Shown here: positions 2,568 through 21,381 of the stretch, in pieces
Position numbering within the stretch: position 1 is the stretch's first letter
How the letters are laid out: every line of letters starts with the position of its first letter
NCBI RefSeq assembly: GCF_017348835.2
Contig: NZ_CP071375.1
Reading direction: 5' to 3' (one strand)
Source of the DNA: Escherichia coli
GTDB taxonomy: Bacteria > Pseudomonadota > Gammaproteobacteria > Enterobacterales > Enterobacteriaceae
Length of the DNA stretch: 64,000 bases
The notes under the pieces: generated by a model
Databases searched by the model: none
What the model saw: only the letters and a program-made list of their open reading frames with translations
Told to the model about the DNA's origin: nothing
Made by a program: the position numbers and the translations under genes

Positions 2568-3862
2568 TATCGCTCCTGTTTATGCCCTAACTTCCGTAGC
2601 ATTTCGCGCGTTACCAGCACGATGCCTTCTTCTGAACGATAGAAACGACGTGCATCTTCCTCTGCGTTTTCACCAATCACCATGCCTTCCGGAATAACAC
2701 AAGCACGATCGATGACGCAGCGGCGCAGACGGCACGAGCGACCTACCCATACTTCCGGTAACAATACGGCGGAATCAATGTTGCAGAATGAATTCACGCG
2801 AACGCGCGAGAACAGAACGGACTGCACCACCACCGAACCGGAGATCACACAACCGCCGGAAACCAGTGAGTTAAGGGTCATCCCGTGGCTACCGGAGCGA
2901 TCCTGCACGAATTTCGCTGGCGGTAATGATTCATTGTAGGTGCGAATTGGCCAATTGCGATCGTACATATCCAGTTCCGGCACCACAGAGGCCAGATCGA
3001 GGTTCGCTTTCCAGTAAGCTTCCAGCGTACCCACATCGCGCCAGTACGGCTCGGCATCCGGGTCGGATTGTACGCAAGAGAGCGGGAACGGGTGCGCATA
3101 GGCCAGACCGGCTTCGGTGATCTTGGGAATCAAATCTTTGCCAAAGTCGTGGCTGGAGTTCTCATCGCGATCGTCTTCTTCCAGCAGTTCATACAGATAG
3201 TCGGCGTCAAAGACGTAGATACCCATACTCGCCAGAGATTTGCTCGGATCGTTCGGCATTGACGGCGGGTTAGCAGGTTTTTCAACGAATTCGATAATTT
3301 TATCGTTCTCATCAACCGCCATAACGCCAAATGCGGAGGCTTCTTCAATCGGTACTGGCATACAAGCAACAGTGCAACGTGCGCCTTTTTCGACGTGATC
3401 GATAAGCATACGCGAGTAGTCTTGCTTGTAGATATGGTCGCCCGCCAGGATCACCACGTATTCCGCTTTATAACGGCGGATAATGTCGAGGTTTTGGGTG
3501 ACCGCATCTGCGGTGCCGCGATACCAGTTTTCCCCTTTCATTCTCTGCTGTGCTGGCAGCAGATCGACAAACTCGTTCATTTCTTCATTGAAGAATGACC
3601 AGCCGCGCTGAATGTGCTGCACCAGAGTGTGGGACTGGTACTGGGTGATCACGCCCATACGACGGATCCCGGAGTTGATGCAGTTAGACAGCGCAAAGTC
3701 AATAATGCGGAACTTACCGCCGAAGTGTACGGCCGGTTTTGCTCGCTTATTGGTTAAATCCTTCAGGCGGGTACCACGTCCTCCCGCCAGTATCAGGGCA
3801 ACAGATTTCAATGGCAGCTGGCGCGCCAACATTAAGTGATCGTTCTTCTCTAAACTAACCAT
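2567..3862 (-). CDS. glgC: Glucose-1-phosphate adenylyltransferase GlgC
   Basis: Track ORF 2567..3898; start moved to ATG at 3862 ([17 protein letters not shown]...) matching the conserved GlgC N-terminus; 1-nt overlap with glgA. Confidence 0.9.
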
Positions 3863-3879
3863 GACTAACTCCTTTTTTA

Positions 3880-5853
3880 TCATCTCTGGAACACACACAA
3901 TCCGTGTGCAGGTCCCTGCCAGACAGCCGTAATCACTGGGTTATCCTCTCCAGCGAATGGGGGAATGGCGTGCCACTCCCCAGCAGGTAAAACAATCTCT
4001 GTTACCTCAAGCGTGGCGTTAATTGCGATCAAAAAGCGATCCGAGAGCAGAATTTGCAGCTGTTTCGGCCCGTTTTGCCACTCATCCGTGCTTAAAGGTT
4101 GAGCATATCGATTTAGCCAACGGACATTGCCGTCGCCTTCTTCCCACCAGCGATTCTCCACCAAAGCGGGAATACGCTTGCGCAGATGGATTAACGCGGC
4201 GGTAAATGCGGTTAAACCACTGCTTGCCTGCGACCAGTCCAACCAGGTTAATTGGTTATCCTGACAGTAGGCATTGTTATTGCCATGCTGGCTGTGACCA
4301 TGTTCGTCACCGGCCAGTAACATCGGCGTACCCTGGGAGAGCAACAACGTTGTTAACAGGGCATGAATGCTGTCGCGCCGCCGTTCAACCAGGTCAAGAG
4401 AACCGCCTAACCCTTCTTTACCATGATTGTTACTGTAATTGTTGTTGGTCCCGTCGCGATTTTCTTCTCCGTTTGCTTCATTGTGTTTATGGTTGAAACA
4501 AACGCAGTCGCGAAGCGTAAAACCGTCATGCGCGGTGACGAGATTAATCGCGGCACTCGGCAGACGACCATTACGTTTAAAAACATCGCTGGAGGCAGCA
4601 AAACGCCCGGCAAACGCCCCCAGAGGCAAATCATAATGTAGCCAGAAACGACGGGCAGCATCGCGGAAATGATCGTTCCACTCGGCAAACAGCGGCGGGA
4701 AATTTCCCACCTGATAACCACCAGGAGCGATATCCCACGGTTCAGCAATTAACTTCACCTGCGAGAGCACCGGGCAGTTCTGGATAGCGGTAAACAACGG
4801 CGCATCCTGACGGAACTCAGGCGTACGGCCCATGACTGCCGCCAGATCAAAGCGGAAACCATCGACGTGGCAGGTTTCTACCCAATAACGCAGGCAGGCG
4901 CAGGCATAATCCACCACCGCCGGATGACTCAAATTGAGCGTGTTGCCACAACCGGTCCAGTTGTGATAATCGCCGTCTTCTCTTATCCAATAATAGCTAC
5001 GGTTGTCGATCCCACGCAGCGAGAATAACGGGCCGTCGAGGTCCAGTTCCGCACTATGGTTGAGCACGATATCAAGAATGACTTCGATACCCGCTTTATG
5101 CAGTGCTTTGATTGCATCGCGAAACTCATCCAGCGCCGTTTCTGGCGAGCAGGCATACGCCGGATACAGCGCAAACATCGCCACCGGGTTGTAACCCCAG
5201 TAGTTACTTAGTCCCATGCGTTGCAGACGTGGTTCACTGGCAAACTGCGCCACCGGCAGCAGTTCCAGCGCGGTAATGCCCAACTGTTTCAAATAGTTGA
5301 TCATCACCGGATGCCCGAGGGCTTTATAAGTGCCACGGATCTCGACCGGGATCTCCGGGTGCAGGTACGTTAATCCTTTGACATGGGCTTCATAAATGAT
5401 GGTGCTGCCCCACGGCGTGCGCGGCGGAGCATCATCTTCCCAGTCATAGTGATCAACCACCACTACGCATTTCGGCGCAATGGCGGCGTTGTTGCGATAG
5501 TCAGGTTCATTATGACCGGCGTGCAGCAGCGGGTTATCTTTAAACTCCCCGTCAATTTGCCGCGCGCAAGGATCAATCAACAACTTCGCCGGGTTAAAGC
5601 GATGCCCCTCGGCGGGTTGCCAGGGGCCATGAACGCGATAACCATAACGTAAACCCGGGCGCGCATCCGGCAGATAACCGTGCCAAATGTCGCCACTGTG
5701 CCCTGGCAAGTCATAGCGATGTTCCTGGCCATTGGCGTCAAAGACACACAGCTCTACCCGCTCGGCATGAGCGGAGAAAAGTGTGAAGTTGACGCCCTGA
5801 CCGTCGTAATGCGCGCCGAGGGGAGCGGGTTTGCCAATGGCGAGTTGTGTCAT
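3880..5853 (-). CDS. glgX: Glycogen debranching enzyme GlgX
   Basis: 657 aa [30 protein letters not shown]..., GH13 debrancher; overlaps glgB stop. Confidence 0.95.
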
Positions 5854-8308: not shown

Positions 8309-9412
8309 TTACGCCAGTTGACGAAGCATCCGACGCAGCGGCTCCGCGGCCCCCCACAGCAGCTGGTCGCCCACGGTAAAGGCTGACAGGAACTCTGGTC
8401 CCATATTCAGCTTACGCAGGCGGCCTACCGGCGTGGTCAGCGTGCCGGTAACGGCAGCTGGGGTTAGCTCACGCATAGTGATTTCCCGATCGTTCGGAAC
8501 GACTTTCGCCCACGGATTGTGCGCAGCCAGCAGTTCTTCCACGGTCGGAATAGACACATCTTTTTTCAATTTAATAGTGAATGCCTGGCTGTGGCAGCGC
8601 AATGCACCGACACGCACACATAAACCATCTACCGGAATTACGGAAGATGTGTTGAGGATCTTGTTGGTTTCCGCCTGCCCTTTCCACTCTTCGCGGCTCT
8701 GACCGTTATCGAGCTGTTTGTCGATCCACGGAATCAGGCTACCCGCCAGTGGCACGCCAAAGTTATCCACCGGCAGCTCACCGCTACGGGTTAAGGTTGT
8801 GACTTTGCGTTCGATATCGAGAATAGCAGAGGACGGGGTCGCGAGTTCATCTGCTACATGGCCATACAGATGGCCCATCTGGGTTAATAACTCACGCATA
8901 TGTCGCGCACCACCGCCGGAAGCGGCCTGGTAGGTTGCAACGGACACCCAATCAACAAGATCATTGGCGAATAAACCACCCAACGACATCAACATCAGGC
9001 TTACGGTACAGTTACCGCCAACAAAAGTCCTGATGCCATTATTTAATCCGTCGGTAATGACTTCCTGATTGACGGGGTCAAGAATGATGATGGCGTCATC
9101 TTTCATGCGCAGAGACGATGCTGCGTCAATCCAGTAACCCTGCCATCCGCTTTCACGAAGCTTTGGATAGATTTCGTTGGTATAATCGCCGCCCTGACAG
9201 GTCACAATGATATCGAGGGCCTTTAGCGCCTCCAGATCAAAGGCATCCTGAAGTGTGCCAGTGGTTCCGCCAAAAGACGGCGCAGCCTGACCAAGCTGAG
9301 AAGTAGAAAAGAAGACAGGGCGAATGGCGTCGAAGTCGCGCTCTTCAACCATGCGTTGCATGAGAACGGAGCCGACCATACCGCGCCAGCCGATAAAACC
9401 AACATTTTTCAT
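8309..9412 (-). CDS. asd: Aspartate-semialdehyde dehydrogenase
   Basis: Track ORF 8309..9472; start moved to ATG at 9412 ([21 protein letters not shown]...), the conserved Asd N-terminus. Confidence 0.93.
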
Positions 9413-9603
9413 AAGCGTTTTTTCCTGCAAAGATGTGTGCTGTATAAATGTGCCGGTCTCCTCTTGGCACATCTTTCACCATACAAAAAGCAGCCAAAGT
9501 CGCAAGTGAAATTAATCAATGATAGCGAAGCCATCAGTAATGCGACTTATCCTGCTTTGTTAGCACGCAGAAAGTCCGCGGCAATTATCAGGGAATTTGA
9601 GTT

Positions 9604-10197
9604 ATGAATGAAATCATTTCTGCAGCAGTTTTATTGATCCTGATTATGGATCCGCTCGGAAACCTACCTATTTTCATGTCCGTACTGAAACATACTGAAC
9701 CGAAAAGACGGCGGGCAATCATGGTGCGAGAGTTGCTTATTGCTCTCCTGGTGATGCTGGTGTTCCTGTTTGCGGGTGAGAAAATTCTGGCATTTCTCAG
9801 CCTGCGAGCAGAAACCGTCTCCATTTCTGGCGGCATCATTCTGTTTCTGATCGCCATTAAGATGATTTTCCCCAGCGCTTCAGGAAATAGCAGCGGGCTT
9901 CCGGCAGGTGAAGAGCCGTTTATCGTGCCGTTGGCAATTCCGTTAGTCGCCGGGCCGACTATTCTCGCCACGCTGATGTTGTTGTCTCATCAGTACCCGA
10001 ATCAGATGGGACATCTGGTGATTGCTCTGCTGCTGGCCTGGGGCGGCACCTTTGTCATTCTGCTACAGTCTTCGCTATTTTTACGTCTGCTGGGCGAGAA
10101 AGGGGTGAACGCACTTGAACGCCTGATGGGATTGATTCTGGTGATGATGGCAACCCAGATGTTCCTCGACGGCATTCGAATGTGGATGAAGGGGTAA
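9604..10197 (+). CDS. yhgN: MarC-family inner membrane protein YhgN
   Basis: 197 aa multi-TM ORF, MNEIISAAVLLILIMDPLGNLPIF... Confidence 0.9.
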   Translation: MNEIISAAVLLILIMDPLGNLPIFMSVLKHTEPKRRRAIMVRELLIALLVMLVFLFAGEKILAFLSLRAETVSISGGIILFLIAIKMIFPSASGNSSGLPAGEEPFIVPLAIPLVAGPTILATLMLLSHQYPNQMGHLVIALLLAWGGTFVILLQSSLFLRLLGEKGVNALERLMGLILVMMATQMFLDGIRMWMKG

Positions 10198-10202
10198 GGT
10201 TC

Positions 10203-10242
10203 AAACAGGTGCTGCACACAACCAGACGCGGCACCTGTTTTA
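10203..10242 (+). terminator. Intrinsic terminator after yhgN (10-bp inverted repeat aaacaggtgc/gcacctgttt followed by TTTTATT)
   Basis: Inverted repeat plus T-tract immediately 3' of the yhgN stop; abuts the stop codon of the DprA-like gene on the opposite strand. Confidence 0.55.
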
Positions 10243-11445
10243 TTACCTGAACTGATAATGACCTTCGCCCAATCGGATAACCCTTCCCTCTTCTTCTGCG
10301 CGGTTCAGCCACACACTAATTTGTTCGATGGTTAAACCAGTACAAGACGCCAGCCTTTCAATACTTATCGATTCCTTTGCAAGGATCGCCAGTTCCGCCA
10401 CAAAGAGTTGATAAAAATCGACAGGCGTATACGCGGGCATTACTGCGTAATTTGCGTCATCTTCATGCAGCGAAAACAGTTCTGGTTGAGCGTTACGGAG
10501 TGCTCTGTCATACATCAGCCCAGGAACGTCTGGCAGTCTGATCGTCACATTCTCAGCCTGTTCAGCACTCCATGACGCCCCATTTTCTACTAATCGTGAA
10601 TTGGCTGATTGCATATCCTGATTTGGTTTAACCTGCACAGGCAGCCACTGATGTTTTAATGCCTCCATCGCCCCGGTTATCGTTCCACCGGTCATTCCCG
10701 CACGTACAACCATTGCGCTTTCAGCAAGGCAATAAATATATTTATTTCGCGCCATCGCATTGCCGACGGTGAAACGTACCTCTGGGTAAAACGGCGAAAT
10801 CAACACCAGGTTGCCTGCTATAAGCCCTTCACGCCATTTCACTAACGTACTCGTTTTTAACAAGCTATCAGCTAATACGCCAACGGCAGTTCCCCCGGCC
10901 TCCAGTGCCGACGCCATTGCACATTCATCAATACCTCGCGCACCACCAGAGATAACGCAAATCCCCTGTTGGGCCAGTTTCGCGGCCAGTTGTTGGGTAT
11001 AGCGCAAATCGTCAGTCGGAGCATCTCGCGAGCCAACAATCGCCATACCTTCCGCTTGCAGTAATGCTTTATTCCCGCAGCCAAATAAAACGGGAGGTGC
11101 ATCCGTTCGCAATCGGTTTTTCAAGCGAACGGGATAATCGGCATCTCCGCGGGTTAAGATCCATAAACCGGCGCGTTGCCACTTATCTACCGCCAACGCC
11201 AGACTATGACCGCGCGCCAGCAAGCCAAGAATACGCTCCTGAGAAATACGCGGATCGCTCCAGCCTGTAAGTTTATCTTGCGGTTGCGGCACCAGAAGCT
11301 CGGCGGGACTGATACGTTGGTGCTTCAGCCATAATGCAAACTTCCCCCATTCACTATTACTAAGAGGTTTATACTCACTCGCCGCCGCGCGAGAAAAATC
11401 GCTGGTTAGCAGGAGAGTTGCTTGTGCATTGGCTGAAAGATTCAT
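10243..11445 (-). CDS. DprA/Smf-like protein (SAM-like N-term, Rossmann DprA core with GGARGID motif, C-terminal winged-helix-like tail); partner of helicase-PRTase gene
   Basis: Track ORF 10243..11538; start set to ATG 11445..11443 (MNLSANAQATLLL...), which overlaps the upstream gene stop as TGATG; motif VISGGARGIDECAMASALEAGG typical of DprA Rossmann domain. Confidence 0.75.
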   Translation of the reverse strand: MNLSANAQATLLLTSDFSRAAASEYKPLSNSEWGKFALWLKHQRISPAELLVPQPQDKLTGWSDPRISQERILGLLARGHSLALAVDKWQRAGLWILTRGDADYPVRLKNRLRTDAPPVLFGCGNKALLQAEGMAIVGSRDAPTDDLRYTQQLAAKLAQQGICVISGGARGIDECAMASALEAGGTAVGVLADSLLKTSTLVKWREGLIAGNLVLISPFYPEVRFTVGNAMARNKYIYCLAESAMVVRAGMTGGTITGAMEALKHQWLPVQVKPNQDMQSANSRLVENGASWSAEQAENVTIRLPDVPGLMYDRALRNAQPELFSLHEDDANYAVMPAYTPVDFYQLFVAELAILAKESISIERLASCTGLTIEQISVWLNRAEEEGRVIRLGEGHYQFR

Positions 11446-13541
11446 CAATTTTTTACCGAGGTAGAAGCAAGGGCAAGAGGATAAACCGTCGGGCAACCTG
11501 CCTGGCCTAACAGTGCTGTCAGAACTGTCAGCGTCCATGCAGAATCCACGATATCGTCAACCAGCAACGCCGGACCAGGCATCAAAGGAGGGGTAATCAC
11601 AAACGCCCCGTCGAGATTTTGACACTGGTGGAAACGGTTTTGCTGCATTTTCTGCGGTGGATTGTCCACGACTTTTTCAATGGCATCAATAAAAGGTAAG
11701 CCAAGTTTCGCCGCCAGTCGCCGGGCAAAATCAGGAACCAGGTCGAGGTGCTTTAATGAAGGAACGCAGCATACCCAGGTTGGTTCAGGATGCGGATTCC
11801 AGCGTTGGCGAACCATTTCCGCACATGCCTCCACCAGTTCATCACTGAATCGCCCCGTTTTTTTCTCCTGTGCTACCTGCTTTCCCCACCCGGAATCTCC
11901 CCAACGAGAAAGGATTCGCCCCGTAGATCCTTGTAAACTCGCAGGCAAGTTCCCTTTAAATCCGTATTGCGTAAAAGCCCCAGCTGCCACCTGTTTATTG
12001 AGATTTAATGGCAGGTCAGCGTGTTTAATAAATAAGTTTGCCGCATGGAGTAAGCCGCTATCAATGTCGGGCGACAACAACGGATGCTGAAGACAACTGC
12101 TACATTTACCACAATGTTCGGCACCTGGCTCATCGAGTGCGCGGCGCAGAAATTGCATTTTGCACTCCTTGGTCGTGATATAGCTTTCAACGTCTGCCAG
12201 CTCACTTTTTCTCTGATTCATCAAATGGTTAATTCGTTCATGGTCAGGAGAAAAACTGACAATTGTTCTGCGCCATAATTTCTCGGTATACACCACAGGC
12301 GATGGATTTTCAGCTACCAATAATTTCAGTGCTTTTTCTATTTGCCCGTAACGGAGATTCGTCCGTTGTTCAATGCCTCGTAAGGTAAGACCGTCATTCA
12401 CGCTAAGTACGTTGAGTATTTCATGAATTTGCGCCTCCGCAGGAAAGGCGCTTTCACGGAAGAATTTATGAATAGCACGGTCTTCACTGCCGCAAAGCAG
12501 TATGCCAACAGCAGAATCGATACCGCGACCGGCACGCCCCACCTGTTGGTAGTAACCAACTATCGAACCTGGCATCTGGTAATGAATAACAAACCCCAAA
12601 TCCGGTTTGTCAAAGCCCATTCCCAGCGCCGTTGTCGCAACCAGCACTTTAATTTTATTTGCCAGCAACGCCTGCTCCAGATATTCCCTGGCAGTATTAG
12701 AATCTTCCGCGCCTTCACAAGTCACGCCGCTGTAGTAAGCAAATGCACTGATACCATTTTTCCTTAACCACTCGGCGACAAGTTCGGCATCGCGAGTAGT
12801 CAGGGTATAAACAATTCCCGATTTGGAAAACTGAGGGATAACTGTTGCTAACCATGCCAGACGGGATGACTGTTCACCTAAGACTAAGGCATCAAGCGCC
12901 AAACTTTCGCGAGCCAGCGTTCCACGCTGAATCACAATGTCACCCAATTGCTGACGGATATCCTCAACGACACGGTTATTCGCTGTCGCGGTTGTACCCA
13001 GAACAGGGGTATTCGCAGGTAGTTGGCGCAAAATATCTAATATACGTCGGTAATCCGGGCGAAAATCGTGGCCCCAATCAGAGATGCAGTGCGCCTCGTC
13101 GACCACAAGCAAGCCAATACGATCGGCTATAGGATATAAAACCGTTTCGATAAAGTCCTGGTTTGCCAAACGTTCCGGGGAAACCAGCAAGCAATCGACC
13201 TCACCTTGCAGCAACTTATCGCTAATGCGCTGCCATTCTTCTCTGTTTGTAGAATTCAACGTTTCAGCCGTAATACCTAACCGTTCAGCGGCGGCAACCT
13301 GGTTACGCATCAGGGCAAGCAAAGGAGAGATGATAATTGTCGGGCCAGCGCCGCGATCGCGGAAGATTTTACTGGCGATGAAGTACACAGCACTTTTCCC
13401 CCAGCCAGTGCGTTGGACAACCAGCAGTTTTCGCCGTTGGTTCACCACCGCGTCTATGGCTTCCCATTGCCCTTCCCTGAAAGTAGCGGTGGTATTTCCT
13501 AACATCCGCTGTAAAAGCAATTCAGCTGCGTGCTTTTCCAT
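11445..13541 (-). CDS. RecQ-family SF2 helicase fused to C-terminal ComF/GntX-type PRTase-like domain
   Basis: 698 aa; helicase motifs TGWGKS (Walker A), VVDEAHCISDWGHDFRPDY (DEAH), TATA, QQVGRAGR; RecQ-type Zn cluster CK...C..C..C (HCGKCSSC); C-terminal QNLDGAFVITPP...ALLVDDIVDSAWTLT resembles a PRTase fold with substituted PRPP loop; AGGAG SD 5 nt before ATG. Confidence 0.8.
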   Translation of the reverse strand: MEKHAAELLLQRMLGNTTATFREGQWEAIDAVVNQRRKLLVVQRTGWGKSAVYFIASKIFRDRGAGPTIIISPLLALMRNQVAAAERLGITAETLNSTNREEWQRISDKLLQGEVDCLLVSPERLANQDFIETVLYPIADRIGLLVVDEAHCISDWGHDFRPDYRRILDILRQLPANTPVLGTTATANNRVVEDIRQQLGDIVIQRGTLARESLALDALVLGEQSSRLAWLATVIPQFSKSGIVYTLTTRDAELVAEWLRKNGISAFAYYSGVTCEGAEDSNTAREYLEQALLANKIKVLVATTALGMGFDKPDLGFVIHYQMPGSIVGYYQQVGRAGRGIDSAVGILLCGSEDRAIHKFFRESAFPAEAQIHEILNVLSVNDGLTLRGIEQRTNLRYGQIEKALKLLVAENPSPVVYTEKLWRRTIVSFSPDHERINHLMNQRKSELADVESYITTKECKMQFLRRALDEPGAEHCGKCSSCLQHPLLSPDIDSGLLHAANLFIKHADLPLNLNKQVAAGAFTQYGFKGNLPASLQGSTGRILSRWGDSGWGKQVAQEKKTGRFSDELVEACAEMVRQRWNPHPEPTWVCCVPSLKHLDLVPDFARRLAAKLGLPFIDAIEKVVDNPPQKMQQNRFHQCQNLDGAFVITPPLMPGPALLVDDIVDSAWTLTVLTALLGQAGCPTVYPLALASTSVKN

Positions 13542-13639
13542 CTTTATCTCCTGCGATCTTTAGGCAGTGATTAGAACGGATTATTTGCAGGTAAATTTGC
13601 GAGAGAGATCAAAAAGATGAAGAGAGGAGAAAAGAGAAA

Positions 13640-13667
13640 TGAATTACTGCGAGCAAGCTCGCAGTAA
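13640..13667 (-). terminator. Intrinsic terminator after gntU (palindrome ttactgcgagc-aa-gctcgcagtaa, U-tract on minus-strand RNA)
   Basis: Near-perfect 11-bp inverted repeat just 3' of the gntU stop (13681), followed by T/C-rich run on the transcribed strand. Confidence 0.55.
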
Positions 13668-13680
13668 TTTGTCGCAGTAA

Positions 13681-15021
13681 TTAACTCAACAGCTGGAACG
13701 CAATCATCCCAACGATGGCACCAACAGTGCCGAGGATGGTTTCCATCATGGTCCAGGTTTTCAGCGTTTCGGCTTCGGTCGCGCCGGTAAATTTACCGAA
13801 CAACCAGAAACCGGCGTCGTTAACGTGGCTGACAACAATCGAACCACCGGCGATACAAATCGACAGCGCCGCCATTTGCGCACCGGAATAGTTCAGTTGT
13901 TCAATGACCGGCATCACCAGCCCCACCGCCGTTAAACAGGCAACGGTGGCAGACCCCTGAATGATGCGCACTGCAGCTGCCAGCACGAAGCAGGTGATAG
14001 CAATCGGCAGGCCCATGCCGGTTAACGCTTCGCCCAGTGCCGGACCTACGCCAGAGTCAACCAGCACCTGTTTGAACACGCCGCCCGCACCAATCACCAG
14101 CAGAATGATCCCCGCCGGTTGCAGCGCGTGACCGCAAATCTCCATCACTTTGTCTTTTGGCATGCCCTGACGCATTGCCAGACCGTAAATCGCCACCAGA
14201 CAAGCAACCAGAATCGCGGTAAACGGATGACCAATAAACTCGAACCATTCGTAAGCGGTAGAGCCTTCCGGCACAAAACGCGCGGCAATGGTTTTCAGCC
14301 CCACCAGCACCAGCGGCAGCAGGATCAGCGACAGGCTGAATCCGAAGGACGGCATTTTGCCTTCGCCGAGATGCGGCTCGCTGATGTCGTCAGGAATATG
14401 CAGCTCAACGTAACGGCTGATGAAGTTACCCCACAGCGGCCCGGCAATAATCATTCCCGGAATTGCCGCACACAGGCCAATCAGGATCATCCAGCCAAAA
14501 TCGGCGTTCATCTGCGATGCCAGCAGCATTGGCGCTGGCCCTGGCACCAGGAACGCCGCCGCTGCCGCCACGCCTGCGAATAATGGGATTACCAGCTTCA
14601 CCAGGTTCGTACCGGTGTGGCGCGCCATTGAAAAAGCAACGCTAATCAGCAGAACAATCGCCACTTCAAAGAACAGCGGTAGCGCACAGACCAGCCCCGC
14701 AAGGCCGATGGCATAATGCGCGCGGCTGTGACCGAAGGATTTGAGCATTTTGACGGCAATCTGATCGACTGCGCCGGTTTCATGTAAGATCTTGCCAAAC
14801 ATAGCTCCCAGGGCGACAACCACCGCCAGGAAGCCGAGGGTGCCTCCCATCCCTTTTTCCATCGTCGCTGCGATTTTATCGAGCGGCATACCGGAAAAAA
14901 GGCCAGCCCCCATGGACACCACCATCAAAGCCAGGAAAGCGTGCATACGCGCCTTCATGACTAAAAACAGCAGCAGTAAAACAGACCCTACTGCTGTTAA
15001 AACAAGCGTTAATGTAGTCAC
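13681..15021 (-). CDS. gntU: Low-affinity gluconate transporter GntU
   Basis: 446 aa GntP-family permease ORF, MTTLTLVLTAVGSVLLLLFLVMKARMH... Confidence 0.93.
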   Translation of the reverse strand: MTTLTLVLTAVGSVLLLLFLVMKARMHAFLALMVVSMGAGLFSGMPLDKIAATMEKGMGGTLGFLAVVVALGAMFGKILHETGAVDQIAVKMLKSFGHSRAHYAIGLAGLVCALPLFFEVAIVLLISVAFSMARHTGTNLVKLVIPLFAGVAAAAAFLVPGPAPMLLASQMNADFGWMILIGLCAAIPGMIIAGPLWGNFISRYVELHIPDDISEPHLGEGKMPSFGFSLSLILLPLVLVGLKTIAARFVPEGSTAYEWFEFIGHPFTAILVACLVAIYGLAMRQGMPKDKVMEICGHALQPAGIILLVIGAGGVFKQVLVDSGVGPALGEALTGMGLPIAITCFVLAAAVRIIQGSATVACLTAVGLVMPVIEQLNYSGAQMAALSICIAGGSIVVSHVNDAGFWLFGKFTGATEAETLKTWTMMETILGTVGAIVGMIAFQLLS

Positions 15022-15024
15022 TAC

Positions 15025-15552
15025 TTATTTGCCTTTTTTAATAACCTCAATGGTGCTTGCCACAACACCTTCCAGCGGTTGATCGATATCCACCACCAGT
15101 ACATCGGTTTCGTCCGCACCCGGCTCCTGCAGCGTTTCAAACTGCGTCACCAACATTTGGGTTTTAAAGAAATGGCCTTTGCGCGCTTTCAGGCGGCTTT
15201 CAATCACATCAAAATCGCCTTTCAGGTAGATGAAAGAGAGATTCGGATTACCTTCACGCAGCAAGTCGCGATAGTGTTTTTTCAATGCAGAACAGACGAT
15301 CAGTGACACTTTATTAGTGCGCTGCATAGCAAACGCGGCGTCGTTCAGCGCCTGCAACCACGGTTTGCGATCATCGTCATTCAGCGGTTCGCCAGACGCC
15401 ATTTTTTCGATATTGCGCCGTGGATGGAGGAAATCGCCATCAAGAAACGCGGCATGAAGTTGATGCGCCACTTCACTGGCGACCGCAGATTTGCCGCTGC
15501 CCGATACGCCCATCAAGACGTAAATGTGGTGATCATGGTTAGTCGTGCTCAA
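15025..15552 (-). CDS. gntK: Gluconokinase GntK (thermoresistant)
   Basis: Track ORF 15025..15573; conserved N-terminus STTNHDHHIYVLMGVSGSGKS preceded by in-frame TTG at 15552 taken as start; P-loop kinase. Confidence 0.85.
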   Translation of the reverse strand: MSTTNHDHHIYVLMGVSGSGKSAVASEVAHQLHAAFLDGDFLHPRRNIEKMASGEPLNDDDRKPWLQALNDAAFAMQRTNKVSLIVCSALKKHYRDLLREGNPNLSFIYLKGDFDVIESRLKARKGHFFKTQMLVTQFETLQEPGADETDVLVVDIDQPLEGVVASTIEVIKKGK

Positions 15553-15584
15553 AGTGGTGCCCCCACAATACAAGAATTAAAAAT

Positions 15585-15610
15585 GTTACGGGTAACTGTT
15601 ATCGGTAACA
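15585..15610 (-). promoter_or_regulatory. Tandem GntR operator-like palindromes (GTTAC-GG-GTAAC and TGTTA-TCGG-TAACA) upstream of gntK
   Basis: Two adjacent inverted repeats matching the GntR operator consensus ATGTTACCCGTAACAT in the gntR-gntK intergenic region. Confidence 0.55.
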
Positions 15611-15690
15611 TTGTCCGGCCGGACAATATCAGAAGCAATATCCATCCGTGCCTTAAGTGTATAAGTGTGAGCTACTTCAAATTTGTGGGC

Positions 15691-16686
15691 TTAAATAGAT
15701 CCACCCGGTGACAAGGTGAAACCTAAATCTAACATTTTCGGTGTCACAGATTCGCCACGAATACGCGCCAGCAGGCGTTCAGCGCCAATACTGCCCATCC
15801 GCTCACGCGGCGTCAGCACGCTCGCAAGTCGTGGCTCCATCACCTGACCAATGTCATGACCGTGGAAACCGGCAATCGCCATATCGTCAGGAACTTTTAA
15901 CCCCAGACGCTGACATTCAAACGCCGCACCGACCGCCAGATCATCATTAGTACAGAACACGCCATCCAGCTGCGGATATTCCCGCCGCGCCTGGCGAATC
16001 AGTTCAATACCGGAAGAGTAAGAAGAAGATTGCTCAACCATCACGCTATACGGCACCAGGCCTGCATCCCGCATCGCCTGTTCGTATCCCTTCTGTTTGA
16101 TGATAGTACGTTCGTCGAGACGTGCGCCGAGATAGGCAATATGGCGATGCCCGCGAGCAATAATGGCGGCGGTCATCTGGCGTGCCGCTTCAAAGTTATC
16201 AAAACCGACGGCGATATCGAGACACGGCGACTGGCTGTCCATCAACTCCACCACCGGGATCCCCGCCACTTCAATCATCTTTAAGGTGCGCGGCGTGTGG
16301 GTACGTTCGGTGAGGATCAGTCCGTCGATATTCCATGAGAGCATTGATTCGAGACGTTCTTGCTCCATTTCCGGTTTATAACCGTAGTGGGCCAGCATGG
16401 TCTGATAACCGTGCGCGTCGGTGACGCTTTCGATTCCGCGTAATACTTCCGCAAAAACCTGGTTGGTGAGAGAAGGTAACAGGACGCCAATCGCCCGGCT
16501 GGTGGCGTTAGAGAGGATATCGGGCGCACGATTGGGAATATAGCCCAGTTCATCAAGAGCCGCGGCAATCTTGCCGCGTAGAGCGACGGAAACCTGATCC
16601 GGGTTGCGTAAAAAACGGCTGACCGTCATTTTGGTCACGCCTACACGGTCAGCCACATCCTGAAGTACGGGTCTTTTCTTTTTCAT
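15691..16686 (-). CDS. gntR: LacI-family gluconate repressor GntR
   Basis: 331 aa, N-terminal HTH MKKKRPVLQDVADRVGVTKMTVSRFL..., periplasmic-binding-like core. Confidence 0.93.
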   Translation of the reverse strand: MKKKRPVLQDVADRVGVTKMTVSRFLRNPDQVSVALRGKIAAALDELGYIPNRAPDILSNATSRAIGVLLPSLTNQVFAEVLRGIESVTDAHGYQTMLAHYGYKPEMEQERLESMLSWNIDGLILTERTHTPRTLKMIEVAGIPVVELMDSQSPCLDIAVGFDNFEAARQMTAAIIARGHRHIAYLGARLDERTIIKQKGYEQAMRDAGLVPYSVMVEQSSSYSSGIELIRQARREYPQLDGVFCTNDDLAVGAAFECQRLGLKVPDDMAIAGFHGHDIGQVMEPRLASVLTPRERMGSIGAERLLARIRGESVTPKMLDLGFTLSPGGSI

Positions 16687-16909
16687 CGTCCTGAAGGTAC
16701 AAAAGAGATAGATTCTCTTAGTTTAACACGGACGCATCAGAACCTTCCCGGGGAAAACAGTGCTTGTTTACAATTATTAGATATACACTAAATCAATTGC
16801 ATCGCATTGTGCTAACGACGCGGCAAAACCCCGGAAGCGTACATCAGCACGCGACCAGAGCGAGCGAGGAAGCCTGCAAAAAGGCAGGCTTCAAAGATGC
16901 TGTTGAGTT

Positions 16910-17605
16910 TTAAACCGGCGGCAGATCGAACAGTAACACTTCGCTGTCGCTATCCGCATGGATGGAGATTGCCTGCTCATCCCAGATTGCCAGACCATCG
17001 CTGGTCGAGGCTTTCGCGCCGTTAATGGTGACATTGCCTTTCACCACCTGGATCCAGACGCGGCGTTCAGCGGCAATCTGATGCACCGACTGCTCATCTT
17101 TCAGCAACGCCCAGCGGTACAGTTCCATATCCTGATGCACTTTCAATGAACCATCTCGCGCATCTGGCGAAAGCACCAGTTGTTTGCCCTGCACGGCATC
17201 GAAGCGACGCTGTTCATAACGCGGCGTAATACCGTTTTCTTCAGGCATGATCCAGATCTGATACAGATGCAGACGCTCGGTGCTGCTTGGGTTGTACTCT
17301 GAGTGACGAATACCCGTACCCGCACTCATAATCTGGAACTCGCCCGCCGGAACCTGCTCTTTATTGCCCATGCTGTCCTGGTGCTCAACAGTACCTTCCA
17401 GCACGTAGGTCAAAATTTCCATATCTTTATGCGGGTGAGTGCCGAAGCCCTGCCCTGCTTCAATCACGTCGTCGTTAATCACGCGCAGCGCGGAGAAGCC
17501 CATAAAGTTCGGATCGTAATAGTTGGCAAAAGAGAAAGTATGCCAGGAGTCCAGCCAGCCATGATTTGCATGACCACGTTCATTTGCTTTGCGTAAGTAG
17601 ATCAT
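16910..17605 (-). CDS. yhhW: Pirin-like quercetin 2,3-dioxygenase YhhW
   Basis: 231 aa cupin ORF MIYLRKANERGHANHGWLDSWHTFSF... Confidence 0.9.
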   Translation of the reverse strand: MIYLRKANERGHANHGWLDSWHTFSFANYYDPNFMGFSALRVINDDVIEAGQGFGTHPHKDMEILTYVLEGTVEHQDSMGNKEQVPAGEFQIMSAGTGIRHSEYNPSSTERLHLYQIWIMPEENGITPRYEQRRFDAVQGKQLVLSPDARDGSLKVHQDMELYRWALLKDEQSVHQIAAERRVWIQVVKGNVTINGAKASTSDGLAIWDEQAISIHADSDSEVLLFDLPPV

Positions 17606-17727
17606 TTGTATTCGCCCCCTGAATGATTTCGATGGGCTTAGTGTGGACCCGATCTGCCTGGGATGATAGAGGGTGAAAATTGACCCCTCTGTTCAAAAAA
17701 ATTGAACTATTTAAGGGGCCATCAAAC

Positions 17728-18765
17728 TTACTTCGCGAGAGTCACGGTGGAGGGAGAGGCTTGCTCAAATCCGCGTTCAAGGATTTCCAGATTGGTAAGA
17801 ACTTCAGATTCCTTGACGTAATTTGGCGCACCGTGGGTGATGGTTTGATACAACGCATCATAAACGCACCCGTAATCGCCCATCTCCGGCTTCATCTCTT
17901 CTCTGACCGTCACGCCCTCGTCATTGACATACTCCAGCACACCGACCGAATCATCCGCTGCGAATCCCGGTTCGCCCGGCATAATATTAGCCTTCAGGCT
18001 GGTTTCCTGCTGGTCGATACCGTATTTAATAAACGAACCTTTCTTACCGTGAACGATAAATTTCGGATAATCGATTTTCACCAGATGGCTGGTTTTGACG
18101 ATGGCTTTCAGGTCACCATAAAACAACTGCGCTTCGAAGGTGTCGTCAGGATTGGCTTTATCACGCAGGCTGCGGATGTCATAAGCGACGTGATCCGGGC
18201 GACCGAACAGAGAAATAATCTGGTCCATCGTATGCACACCAAGGCCATAGAATGCGCCATCCTGCGGCAACCCAGGTTTGGTTTCTGCGACCGGGCGGTA
18301 ATAGTCAAAATGGCTTTCCACTTCAACAATCTCTCCCAGCTTGCCGCTTTCAATCGCTTTTTTCGCCGTCAGGAAGCAGGAATCAAAGCGACGATTCTGA
18401 TACGGCGTGACGGTCAGCCCTTTGCTTTTCGCCAACGCAAACAGCTCCTTCGCCTGGGCAAGCGTCGGGGTGAACGGTTTTTCGACCAGCACATTTTTCC
18501 CGGCTTCCAGCGCGCGTTTCGCGTACTCGAAATGGCTGTCCGCGTGGGTGCAGACAACAACCAGCTTAACATCGGGATCGTTTAGTACTTCGTCGAGATC
18601 GCTGGTGAAATGGATATGGGAATAAATGGGAGCCTGTTCTTCCGGCTTCGCATGGCGACGAAAAATATGCGCGACATGCCAGCTATCCTTGCGGTTAAGT
18701 ACATACGGCAGATGGTAACGGGTGGTGCTTTTGCCGAAGCCAATAAAGGCGCAGTTGATGACCAT
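17728..18765 (-). CDS. yhhX: Gfo/Idh/MocA-family NAD(P)-dependent oxidoreductase YhhX
   Basis: 345 aa, MVINCAFIGFGKSTTRYHLPYV... Rossmann N-terminus. Confidence 0.9.
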   Translation of the reverse strand: MVINCAFIGFGKSTTRYHLPYVLNRKDSWHVAHIFRRHAKPEEQAPIYSHIHFTSDLDEVLNDPDVKLVVVCTHADSHFEYAKRALEAGKNVLVEKPFTPTLAQAKELFALAKSKGLTVTPYQNRRFDSCFLTAKKAIESGKLGEIVEVESHFDYYRPVAETKPGLPQDGAFYGLGVHTMDQIISLFGRPDHVAYDIRSLRDKANPDDTFEAQLFYGDLKAIVKTSHLVKIDYPKFIVHGKKGSFIKYGIDQQETSLKANIMPGEPGFAADDSVGVLEYVNDEGVTVREEMKPEMGDYGCVYDALYQTITHGAPNYVKESEVLTNLEILERGFEQASPSTVTLAK

Positions 18766-18886
18766 GATTTCGTCCTTTTTAAGGTGGTTATTTACACCTT
18801 AGCGCAAAGCGGACGTGGTTCCTACTGGAGTGCGCATAACGAACACAAGCACTCCCGTGGATAAATTGAGAACGAAAGATCAAAAA

Positions 18887-18976
18887 AAAAGCCAGCACCC
18901 GGCTGGCTAAGTAATACTGGAAGCAATGTGAGCAATGTCGTGCTTTCAGGTTCTCCGCGAGGGTCTTCCTGATCGC
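18887..18976 (-). ncRNA. ryhB: RyhB small RNA (Fur-repressed, iron-sparing regulator)
   Basis: Minus-strand sequence GCGATCAGGAAGACCCTCGCGGAGAACCTGAAAGCACGACATTGCTCACATTGCTTCCAGTATTACTTAGCCAGCCGGGTGCTGGC + U-tract matches RyhB; located between yhhX and yhhY as expected. Confidence 0.9.
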
Positions 18977-18980
18977 GAGA

Positions 18981-19000
18981 CAATAATAATCATTCTCATT
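18981..19000 (-). promoter_or_regulatory. Fur box overlapping ryhB promoter
   Basis: caataataatcattctcatt resembles Fur consensus GATAATGATAATCATTATC, immediately upstream of the RyhB 5' end. Confidence 0.7.
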
Positions 19001-19098
19001 CGCACTTGTCCAACACTTTTTGCAAAAAAATGCATTTGACTCGTATTTGAAAGTCAATGATGTTGAAAGGGACATTTACCCCAAATGAGGACAAAGGA

Positions 19099-19587
19099 AT
19101 GAGTGAGATAGTGATACGCCATGCTGAAACGCGCGATTACGAGGCCATCAGGCAGATTCACGCCCAGCCGGAGGTGTATTGCAACACGCTACAAGTGCCT
19201 CATCCTTCCGATTATATGTGGCAGGAGCGACTCGCCGATCGTCCCGGCATCAAGCAACTCGTCGCCTGTATTGATGGAGACGTCGTGGGCCATCTCACCA
19301 TTGACGTGCAACAGCGCCCACGCCGCAGTCATGTTGCCGATTTTGGTATCTGTGTCGACTCCCGTTGGAAGAATCGCGGCGTCGCCAGCGCCTTTATGCG
19401 AGAGATGATTGAAATGTGCGACAACTGGTTGCGGGTAGATCGTATCGAGCTAACGGTGTTCGTCGATAACGCGCCAGCAATTAAGGTCTATAAAAAATAC
19501 GGCTTTGAAATTGAAGGGACTGGTAAGAAGTACGCATTGCGTAATGGTGAATATGTTGATGCGTATTATATGGCGCGGGTGAAATAA
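19099..19587 (+). CDS. yhhY: GNAT-family N-acetyltransferase YhhY
   Basis: Track ORF from 19057; conserved start MSEIVIRHAETRDYEAIRQIH at ATG 19099. Confidence 0.88.
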   Translation: MSEIVIRHAETRDYEAIRQIHAQPEVYCNTLQVPHPSDYMWQERLADRPGIKQLVACIDGDVVGHLTIDVQQRPRRSHVADFGICVDSRWKNRGVASAFMREMIEMCDNWLRVDRIELTVFVDNAPAIKVYKKYGFEIEGTGKKYALRNGEYVDAYYMARVK

Positions 19588-19612
19588 AGAATTTGCAATC
19601 TAAGTTTGCCAT

Positions 19613-19643
19613 TTAAGCCCTCACCTACCGGGAGAGGGCTTAA
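19613..19643. terminator. Bidirectional hairpin between convergent yhhY and ggt (ttaagccctc / gagggcttaa)
   Basis: 10-bp perfect inverted repeat with 11-nt loop in the 60-bp yhhY-ggt gap. Confidence 0.45.
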
Positions 19644-19647
19644 GATA

Positions 19648-21381
19648 TTAATAACCCGCCGTTAAATCATCCACCGAGCGCGGATCGGATGCGCCGTACA
19701 ACTCACCGTCCGGCCCAACCATAATGCTTTGTGTACTGCCCATCGCCTCTTTCAGCGCCACTTTCTGACCTTTTGCTTCCAGCAGCTTGAGCGTATCCGG
19801 GCTAAACCCTTTTTCGACACGCAGCTCGTCCGGCAACCACTGATGGTGGAAACGCGGCGCATTGGTCGCTTCGGCGACGTTCATGCCATAATCGATGCTA
19901 TTCACCACCATTTGAAGCACTGTAGTGATGATCCGGCTCCCGCCAGGGCTACCGGTGACCAGCCAGGTTTTACCGTCTTTCACCAAAATGGTGGGTGACA
20001 TCGACGACAGCGGGCGTTTATTCGGCCCGACCGCGTTGGCATCACCGCCCACCAGCCCGTAAACGTTCGGTACGCCCGGTTTGGCGGAGAAATCATCCAT
20101 CTGGTTATTAAGCAGAATACCGCTCTCGCCCGCGACAATACCCGTACCGAAGGTGGTGTTCAGCGTATAGGTCACCGCCACGGCGTTACCGTCTTTATCC
20201 ACCACTGAGTAATGGGTAGTTTGATTACTCTCATAAGGCGCAAGCTTGCCAGGGCGAATCTCGCTGGACGGTTTCGCTTTATTGATATCGATTTGCTCGG
20301 CAATAGATTTGGCATAGGCTTTATTGGTCAGCGCCTGCCACGGGACTTTCATAAAATCCGGGTCGCCAAGATATTCCGAGCGGTCAGCGTAGGCATATTT
20401 CTCCGCTTCTGCCATGATCTGCATCGCATCGGCGCTGCCAAAGCCGTATTTCTTCATATCGAAGTTTTCCAGAATATTGAGGATTTGTACGATATGGATC
20501 CCGCCGGAGGATGGCGGTGGCATGGAGTAAACCTGATACCCGCGATAATCGCCGCTTATCGGTGTGCGTTCGACCGCTTTATACGCCGCTAAATCTTCTT
20601 TAGTGATCAGGCCACCGTTTTTCTGCATCTCCTGGGCAATCTGTTCCGCTATCGTGCCTTTGTAGAATTCGTCCGGGCCGTTTTCGGCAATCATCTCCAG
20701 GCTCTTTGCCAGGTTCGCCTGCACCAGCTTGTCGCCCTTTTTCAGCGGCTCGCCCTCTTTCCAGAAGATAGCCTTGCTGTTTTCGTGATTCGGCAGCACT
20801 TCGCTCCCGTAGGTTTTGAGATCGTCAGCCAGCGCGTCGTTAACGATAAAACCATCGCGTGCCAGTTTAAACGCTGGCTGCACCACTTTGTTCAACGGCA
20901 TTGTGCCGTATTTATCCAACGCCAGCGAGAAACCAGCGACCGTACCGGGCGTGCCGGAAGCCAGATGCGAAGTGAGTGATTTTTTGCTGTCCGGGTTACC
21001 CTGATCATCAAGGAACATATCGCGGGTCGCTTTGGCGGGTGCCATTTCGCGGAAATCGATAGCGGTGGTATTGCCATTTTTCGAGCGGATCAGCATAAAA
21101 CCACCACCGCCCAGATTCCCTGCCTGCGGATGCGTTACCGCCAGCGCGTAGCCCACAGCCACGGCGGCATCAACGGCATTCCCGCCCTCCTTGAGGATAT
21201 CCACCCCCACCTGAGTGGCAGTAGCATCTACAGATGCCACCATCCCCTGTTTCGCGCGTACCGGATGGAAGACATCTTCCTCCACGCCGTAAGAAACAGG
21301 AGGCGCAGCGGCGGCGCTAAAACAACTTCCTGAGAGCAGAGCAGCAATGGCCACCCGGCGTAAAAACGTCGGTTTTATCAT
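19648..21381 (-). CDS. ggt: Gamma-glutamyltranspeptidase
   Basis: Track ORF 19648..21408; start set to MIKPTFLRRVAIAALLSGSCFSAAA (signal peptide) at 21381; Ntn-hydrolase. Confidence 0.9.
   Translation of the reverse strand: MIKPTFLRRVAIAALLSGSCFSAAAAPPVSYGVEEDVFHPVRAKQGMVASVDATATQVGVDILKEGGNAVDAAVAVGYALAVTHPQAGNLGGGGFMLIRSKNGNTTAIDFREMAPAKATRDMFLDDQGNPDSKKSLTSHLASGTPGTVAGFSLALDKYGTMPLNKVVQPAFKLARDGFIVNDALADDLKTYGSEVLPNHENSKAIFWKEGEPLKKGDKLVQANLAKSLEMIAENGPDEFYKGTIAEQIAQEMQKNGGLITKEDLAAYKAVERTPISGDYRGYQVYSMPPPSSGGIHIVQILNILENFDMKKYGFGSADAMQIMAEAEKYAYADRSEYLGDPDFMKVPWQALTNKAYAKSIAEQIDINKAKPSSEIRPGKLAPYESNQTTHYSVVDKDGNAVAVTYTLNTTFGTGIVAGESGILLNNQMDDFSAKPGVPNVYGLVGGDANAVGPNKRPLSSMSPTILVKDGKTWLVTGSPGGSRIITTVLQMVVNSIDYGMNVAEATNAPRFHHQWLPDELRVEKGFSPDTLKLLEAKGQKVALKEAMGSTQSIMVGPDGELYGASDPRSVDDLTAGY

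Follow-up and report, generated by a model that had tools for sequence, protein, structure and literature searches.

The interval between yhgN and gntU in the Escherichia coli DNA analysed here (the window, a stretch of 64,000 nucleotides from contig NZ_CP071375.1) contains a PsyrTA (RqlHI) toxin-antitoxin (TA) operon together with its own flanking hairpins. We place at about 0.8 the probability that this segment is one allele of an old, mutually exclusive pair, predates E. coli and is exchanged by homologous recombination through the flanking genes. The gene order in the window is glgB-asd-yhgN (plus strand), two minus-strand genes, and then gntU-gntK-gntR (minus strand). When the window is aligned to K-12, homology ends directly after the TAA of yhgN and restarts exactly at the TAA of gntU. 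Positions 10198-13680 are exactly the stretch that differs, and the junction is defined by three features.

9604-10197, plus strand: yhgN, encoding a NAAT/MarC-family transporter, the left conserved flank; its stop (10195-10197) is the left breakpoint (open reading frame (ORF) list; RefSeq annotation of strain PE164).
10198-13680: the variable segment of 3,483 bp, or module allele, in place of which an unrelated 56-bp spacer stands in module-less E. coli (K-12 alignment).
13681-15021, minus strand: gntU, encoding a gluconate transporter, the right conserved flank; its stop (13681-13683) is the right breakpoint (ORF list, PE164 annotation and K-12 alignment).

Strain PE164 is 100% identical to the window over 9604-14200. 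In K-12, the yhgN and gntU stops are separated by 56 bp (CGAGGAGAGTTTTTCGAAAAGAACCCGGTAGCGTCACAACTACCGGGCGAACAAAC) that carry a hairpin of their own. No similarity to this spacer was detected at either end of the module (shuffle p 0.3-0.96), and tblastn at E <= 1 recovered no psyrT or psyrA remnants from the module-less loci of K-12, Salmonella and Citrobacter-like genomes. Because homology breaks at both stops and the spacer is unlike the module ends, the whole 3,483 bp, including both hairpins, is exchanged for 56 bp. Both hairpins are part of the variable segment, and no K-12-like target sequence flanks the module. The initial annotation had described an insertion whose limits look like native terminators of yhgN and gntU, a description that fails because neither hairpin is found in module-less genomes and the unrelated K-12 spacer begins where homology ends, at the stops. 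The alignment of this junction against module-less genomes that it proposed was informative, placing the breakpoints exactly at both stops with no target-site duplication (TSD).

Among 5,426 complete E. coli genomes, the module is found in 1,650, always on the chromosome, in single copy, at the yhgN/gntU site and with 95.8-100% identity. The 56-bp spacer is found in 3,773, also as a single copy, and the two are mutually exclusive. Since the two sets of genomes are complementary, the site is biallelic in E. coli rather than a hotspot with varied cargo; the intergenic hotspot suggested initially thus reduces to two states. The single-copy occurrence of the spacer also means that it is not a dispersed repeat. 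E. coli genomes without the module carry this clean alternative allele and not a module decayed in situ, but decay does occur as well, in O157:H7 and Shigella sonnei.

Orthologous, syntenic copies in several enterobacterial genera place the origin of the module allele before E. coli. The protein cluster at 90% identity or more has 3,633 members, mostly from E. coli, and in a protein search this E. coli/Shigella cluster is followed by a gap, after which further relatives stand at 74-69% identity. All of these relatives that could be placed sit between gntU and yhgN/asd, in the order gntU-psyrT-psyrA-(yhgN)-asd. The syntenic module loci come from C. freundii (L089), a second Citrobacter (L091), Silvania hatchlandensis (L094), Klebsiella (L096), an E. 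fergusonii-labelled genome (L115), L098 and L110. The Klebsiella locus has yhgN deleted, and L098 has four extra genes between psyrA and yhgN. A 67% relative (L099) lies in an unrelated context. In a neighbor-joining (NJ) tree of the syntenic copies with 30 other PsyrT proteins, the syntenic copies form one clade in 199/200 bootstraps together with P0028 and P0031, two close relatives from outside the set of placed loci. In the same tree, PsyrT proteins from outside the enterobacteria branch in a star-like pattern that spans orders.

Divergence of the module follows that of its flanks. Identity to the E. coli proteins is 84-98% for the flanking products, 69-74% for PsyrT and 57-64% for PsyrA, in roughly the same rank order. 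Within E. coli, the number of synonymous substitutions per synonymous site (dS) is 0.10-0.21 for psyrT and 0.02-0.23 for the flanks, with the psyrT value against an O157-like strain being meaningless owing to psyrT frameshifts, and module alleles of different lineages differ by 2.6-3.9% overall. Between the two Citrobacter species, dS is 0.58-0.63 for the module and 0.33-0.79 for the flanks, and between genera the module is saturated. The module is under purifying selection, with a ratio of nonsynonymous to synonymous substitution (dN/dS) of about 0.06-0.28. The simplest reading of these comparisons would be a single old arrival at yhgN/gntU that was followed by descent with the flanks. An old or recombination-mediated acquisition had been suggested at the outset. 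Its age and its exchange by recombination (in L115 and in B2 strains, see below) are upheld, but an acquisition within E. coli is not, because the module is syntenic, monophyletic and co-diverging across genera. A later acquisition gives way to a module that appears largely ancestral and is found at this junction also in Citrobacter, Klebsiella, Silvania and others.

The segment has none of the mobility signatures that were sought. There are no integrase, recombinase or transposase ORFs within it, no tRNA in 5-20 kb, no Rfam match in 9300-14000 at E <= 1, and no direct or inverted repeats, either as TSD or as terminal inverted repeats (TIR), that bracket 10198/13680. The ORF, tRNA, Rfam and repeat scans therefore bear out the initial observation that integrase, transposase, tRNA and direct repeats are missing here. 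No close copy of the module occurs on plasmids, where the closest copy is 60.7% identical, and phages hold no full-length copy.

Two comparisons point to homologous recombination as the mode of exchange. Between the E. fergusonii-labelled genome (L115) and E. coli SMS-3-5, dS is 0.071 (34/493) for psyrT, 0.198 for gntU and 0.215 for yhgN. This roughly threefold lower value for psyrT indicates that the module crossed species more recently than the flanks diverged, via recombination through homologous flanks. In addition, B2 strains that share flanking alleles carry either state of the junction. The L115 introgression and these shared-flank genomes together identify recombination as the mode of exchange and not of first acquisition. 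The module would then be a passenger of homologous recombination through its conserved flanks that is lost and regained by allele replacement, and its lack of mobility genes would be explained if it moves only in this manner. Which of the two alleles came first is something that we infer in this reading. We regard as possible, though rather doubtful, an extended form of it in which yhgN/gntU is a very long-lived, trans-species presence/absence polymorphism. Both alleles would date from before E. coli and be maintained by balancing or fluctuating selection that sets the cost of a genotoxic toxin against some benefit, they would pass between species only by flanking recombination, and the invariant palindrome next to gntU would be a functional insulator or protein-binding site and not merely a terminator.

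The segment encodes two proteins with a family assignment, both of which belong to PsyrTA.

11445-13541, minus strand: psyrT (rqlH), an intact gene for the toxin, a RecQ-like helicase of 698 aa with a C-terminal phosphoribosyltransferase (PRTase) domain (PADLOC, Pfam).
10243-11445, minus strand: psyrA (rqlI), encoding the DprA-like antitoxin of 400 aa, with its stop at 10243-10245 (PADLOC, Pfam, orthologue starts).

The PADLOC PsyrT model matches residues 3-697 of the 698 (E = 0, 1063 bits). Pfam DEAD (1.9e-25) and Helicase_C (8.9e-14) score above cut-off in the same product, and the C-terminal matches to Pribosyltran (16.4 bits, residues 605-683) and RecQ_Zn_bind are both below it. The psyrA product matches PADLOC PsyrA (3.8e-202) over residues 32-431 of a long ORF, and it also matches Pfam DNA_processg_A (4.4e-51). 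This long ORF corresponds to the RefSeq model of psyrA, which has 431 aa (10243-11538) and overlaps psyrT by 94 nt. The RefSeq model is most likely too long, with the real gene spanning 10243-11445 and starting at Met32 of the long ORF, because the PsyrA model and the orthologues of 391-401 aa begin at Met32, at the psyrT stop, with a TGATG junction. PsyrA versions of 400 aa are present in the protein cluster. The psyrT stop and the psyrA start overlap as TGATG at 11443-11447 and, judging from this arrangement, the two genes are translationally coupled.

PsyrTA and RqlHI are the same system (Sberro 2013; Millman 2022 equates the two). In the extraintestinal pathogenic E. coli (ExPEC) strain F11, RqlH is genotoxic via its PRTase domain, RqlI binds and restrains RqlH, and rqlH-rqlI are co-transcribed separately from the neighbour genes (Russell & Mulvey 2015, PMC4670107). 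The F11 pair comes from the same species and has the same two genes, order and overlap as the pair in the window, with no structural difference. By analogy with this orthologue, which is about 97% identical, the window psyrT would be toxic and would be neutralised by psyrA. The inactivation of psyrT with psyrA left intact in O157:H7 gives indirect support for toxicity that is neutralised by the antitoxin. The module allele of the window is the O157-type sequence (99.6-99.7% identical), yet its toxin gene is undamaged. In the O157-like strain FSIS11705876, the O157:H7-type psyrT (L085 11342-13466, equivalent to window 11445-13541) is a pseudogene next to an intact psyrA: it has lost 1 nt near codon 172, has gained a nonsense codon by CAA>TAA and carries 29 bp duplicated in tandem near nt 1786.

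ShosTA likewise combines a DprA-like antitoxin with a PRTase-containing toxin, and the PsyrA of the window also matches ShosA models (3.2e-27). However, ShosT lacks the RecQ-like helicase, and the PsyrT and PsyrA models are best for the window pair by a wide margin. Phage protection has been reported for a heterologous PsyrTA (Millman 2022). PsyrTA at 'gntU-yhgN' is listed in S3 Table of Hochhauser et al. 2023 (PMC10121019) with about 3,486 bp, 2 genes, 'None' as mobile genetic element (MGE) and no hotspot. That table gives the position only, and main-text searches turned up no discussion of the breakpoints, the two alleles, the cross-genus synteny or the conservation of the hairpins. The system and its position are therefore already known, and the comparative details added here are new but incremental. 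They imply that a defence or TA module that is MGE-free and flanked by two hairpins is not necessarily the product of insertion into native intergenic DNA. Hairpins that travel with the module matter for the counting and dating of 'MGE-free' defence systems in pan-genome studies. The 3,483 bp and the 56 bp on the same flanks also constitute a clean natural allele pair for tests of how PsyrTA/RqlHI harms or benefits the fitness of E. coli.

The noncoding parts of the module allele consist of the following elements.

10203-10240: the left hairpin, with a 13-bp stem, a 12-nt loop and a T-run on the plus strand (fold, repeat scan).
13542-13641, minus strand: the psyrTA 5' region, in which TTGAT and TAAAT/TAATC blocks are conserved and a GGAG Shine-Dalgarno sequence precedes the ATG by 7-10 nt (cross-genus alignment).
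13642-13669, minus strand: the right palindrome, AATTACTGCGAGC-NN-GCTCGCAGTAATT, followed by a pyrimidine/T-rich tract on the minus strand (terminator scan, fold, repeat scan).
13672-13682: a second copy of the hairpin arm, 11 nt (TCGCAGTAATT), that overlaps the gntU stop (inverted repeat).

The hairpin with a T-tract that had been noticed after the yhgN stop is confirmed, with 13-nt arms at 10203-10215 and 10228-10240 that are 92% complementary. It folds at -25.1 kcal/mol (z = -6.0), is followed by TTTTATT, and fills nearly the whole 45-nt gap between the convergent yhgN and psyrA stops. It is probably a bidirectional terminator for these two genes, and as such it would most likely end both convergent transcripts. 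A hairpin exists at this position in every genus checked, with a sequence that varies by genus. The left hairpins of Citrobacter (L089, L091), Silvania (L094) and L110 hold CTGCG...CGCAG-like arms that resemble the core on the gntU side; such arms are missing from the left hairpin of E. coli. The likeness may be due to chance among GC-rich hairpins.

The palindrome that had been noticed after the gntU stop is also real. Its two 13-nt arms (13642-13654 and 13657-13669) are perfectly complementary, and the gntU strand folds at -16.6 kcal/mol (z = -4.3). The terminator scan called this hairpin with a 12-bp stem followed by UCAUUUCUCUUUU and with the tail CATTTCTCTT. The window has a single copy of its core, CTGCGAG-N4-CTCGCAG, where 0.03 would be expected. 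The palindrome is probably the gntU terminator and is predicted to insulate psyrTA from gntKU transcription, which it would most likely end ahead of the psyrTA promoter. All syntenic module loci have a hairpin about 20 nt past the gntU stop. The core is invariant in 7/8 syntenic lineages, with that of L110 being slightly divergent, and the outer stem covaries across six enterobacterial lineages, with AUUA/UAAU in E. coli, AUUG/CAAU in Citrobacter, AUAAG/CUUAU in Silvania and UAGCG/CGCUA in Klebsiella. With the exception of L110, the exact palindrome is found once per syntenic module-bearing locus, and it is found in 0/82 non-enterobacterial PsyrTA loci and in no module-less locus. This confinement to syntenic module loci means that the palindrome belongs to the junction haplotype and not to PsyrTA generally. 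A role as a general PsyrTA operator was considered and rejected because none of the 82 non-enterobacterial loci has the palindrome. The second arm copy at 13672-13682 is a possible alternative pairing partner for the 5' arm at 13642-13652, and weaker echoes of it exist in other genera.

The empty allele has counterparts of its own outside E. coli. Directly after the gntU stop, the Salmonella (L101) and Citrobacter-like (L102-L109) genomes that lack the module carry an inverted pair of repetitive extragenic palindromic (REP) sequences, a bacterial interspersed mosaic element (BIME), plus a T-run. The first REP after gntU (L102) lies at an equal offset to, and aligns with, the 56-bp spacer of E. 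coli (shuffle p about 0.006-0.008), and the end of the Salmonella L101 BIME matches the 3' half of the spacer (shuffle p < 0.002). From these alignments, the spacer looks like a collapsed BIME; given that it is single copy in E. coli, it is at most a decayed REP/BIME relic. B2 genomes with sequence type 131 (ST131)-type flanks up to the junction carry a B2-specific spacer variant with 4-5 differences from K-12, which indicates that the empty allele is old within E. coli.

Three other accounts of the junction have to be weighed against an old pair of alleles exchanged by recombination. A K-12-like junction with pre-existing yhgN and gntU terminators, between which the module was dropped in some E. 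coli lineages, would explain why hairpins directly follow both stops, and it is consistent with the lack of mobility genes and with the slightly atypical base composition at third codon positions (GC3). It is nevertheless highly improbable. The empty site has neither hairpin and nothing of its 56 bp remains at the module ends, across genera the module keeps its synteny and is monophyletic, its dS being no lower than that of the flanks, and the module alleles within E. coli have diverged as much as core genes. The segment could instead be a cryptic non-autonomous element that is recognised in trans at its hairpin ends and has no TSD or TIR, like the insertion sequences IS200/IS605 or REP sequences with their RAYT transposases. 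Hairpins at both ends, the CTGCG...CGCAG-like arms in the left hairpin of Citrobacter, Silvania and L110, and the expectation that such elements leave no TSD are compatible with this mechanism. Against it, all 1,650 module-bearing E. coli genomes and each enterobacterial lineage that was checked have the module at one fixed chromosomal site, none of these E. coli genomes has a second copy or a plasmid-borne one, the left and right hairpins of E. coli show no sequence relationship, and no non-enterobacterial PsyrTA locus has the palindrome. We therefore consider such an element to be extremely unlikely; an IS200/IS605- or REP-like hairpin-ended element was rejected on the basis of the fixed single site.

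The third account puts the spacer first, and we rate it as possible but less likely than not. If the REP/BIME-type junction is primordial, then PsyrTA and its upstream hairpin could have replaced the spacer once in an early enterobacterium and spread among genera and species by homologous recombination through gntU and yhgN/asd, leaving a long-lived polymorphism. The E. coli empty-allele hairpin does resemble the post-gntU BIME of Salmonella and Citrobacter-like genomes at the same offset, introgression is demonstrated in E. fergusonii, GC3 of the module is low, and the star-like non-enterobacterial PsyrT group indicates that the family is mobile elsewhere. However, dS of the module between genera is saturated and not below that of the flanks, and the Citrobacter pair has equal dS, from which it follows that any spread is about as old as the genera. 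REP/BIMEs are also mobile themselves and could be independent gains after deletions.

Several observations weigh against the preferred reading of an old module allele that descends with its flanks and of the functions proposed for its parts. PsyrT identity between E. coli and Citrobacter is 73%, barely above the 66-67% to unrelated gammaproteobacteria. With so small a margin, vertical descent needs fast evolution of the enterobacterial clade, or else the outside group has been mobile recently. The empty type may, from the spacer alignments, also be older than E. coli and trans-specific. Anti-phage activity of a native E. coli PsyrTA was not detected in one study, in strain NILS69. The U-tract of the right hairpin is interrupted, and upstream of psyrT a sigma-70 scan found nothing and manual hexamer spacing gave no convincing -35/-10 pair. 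Base composition is also divided. The initial annotation had called GC content host-like, which is correct for the total GC of the segment (49.5% vs 52.6% for the window) but not for GC3. The GC3 comparison with flanking core genes that it had proposed gives 47% for psyrT and psyrA, below the 55-74% of those genes and under all other window ORFs of at least 250 aa (55-74%) except a DUF4049 gene. This low GC3 is compatible with an ultimately foreign origin of psyrTA or with low expression. The DUF4049 gene itself (540 aa, 61616-63238, minus strand) has a clearly atypical composition, with GC of 37.6% and GC3 of 33.6%, the lowest in the window by far.

The surroundings of the junction vary further in other genomes. 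In L115, asd, glgB, glgX and glgC (13128-19975) are 78-87% identical to E. coli (dS about 1), and the adjoining yhgN-yhhX stretch is 95-96% identical (dS about 0.2), with a sharp mosaic boundary between yhgN and asd. The gntU-yhgN interval is plastic across the family. Elsewhere it holds an AIM24-domain gene, a 148-aa ORF, a metallophosphatase and a DUF4440 gene (L098 9294-12451; L102-L109 about 3640-4570). The 148-aa ORF, which has no Pfam match, recurs at 62-64% identity in L098 and in the module-less Citrobacter-like L102-L109, where REP pairs flank it. In Salmonella L101 (5578-6001), yhgN is cut to an N-terminal remnant (residues 4-38), and in Klebsiella L096 (9303-9660) it is essentially gone, so deletions at this junction can remove a neighbouring core gene.

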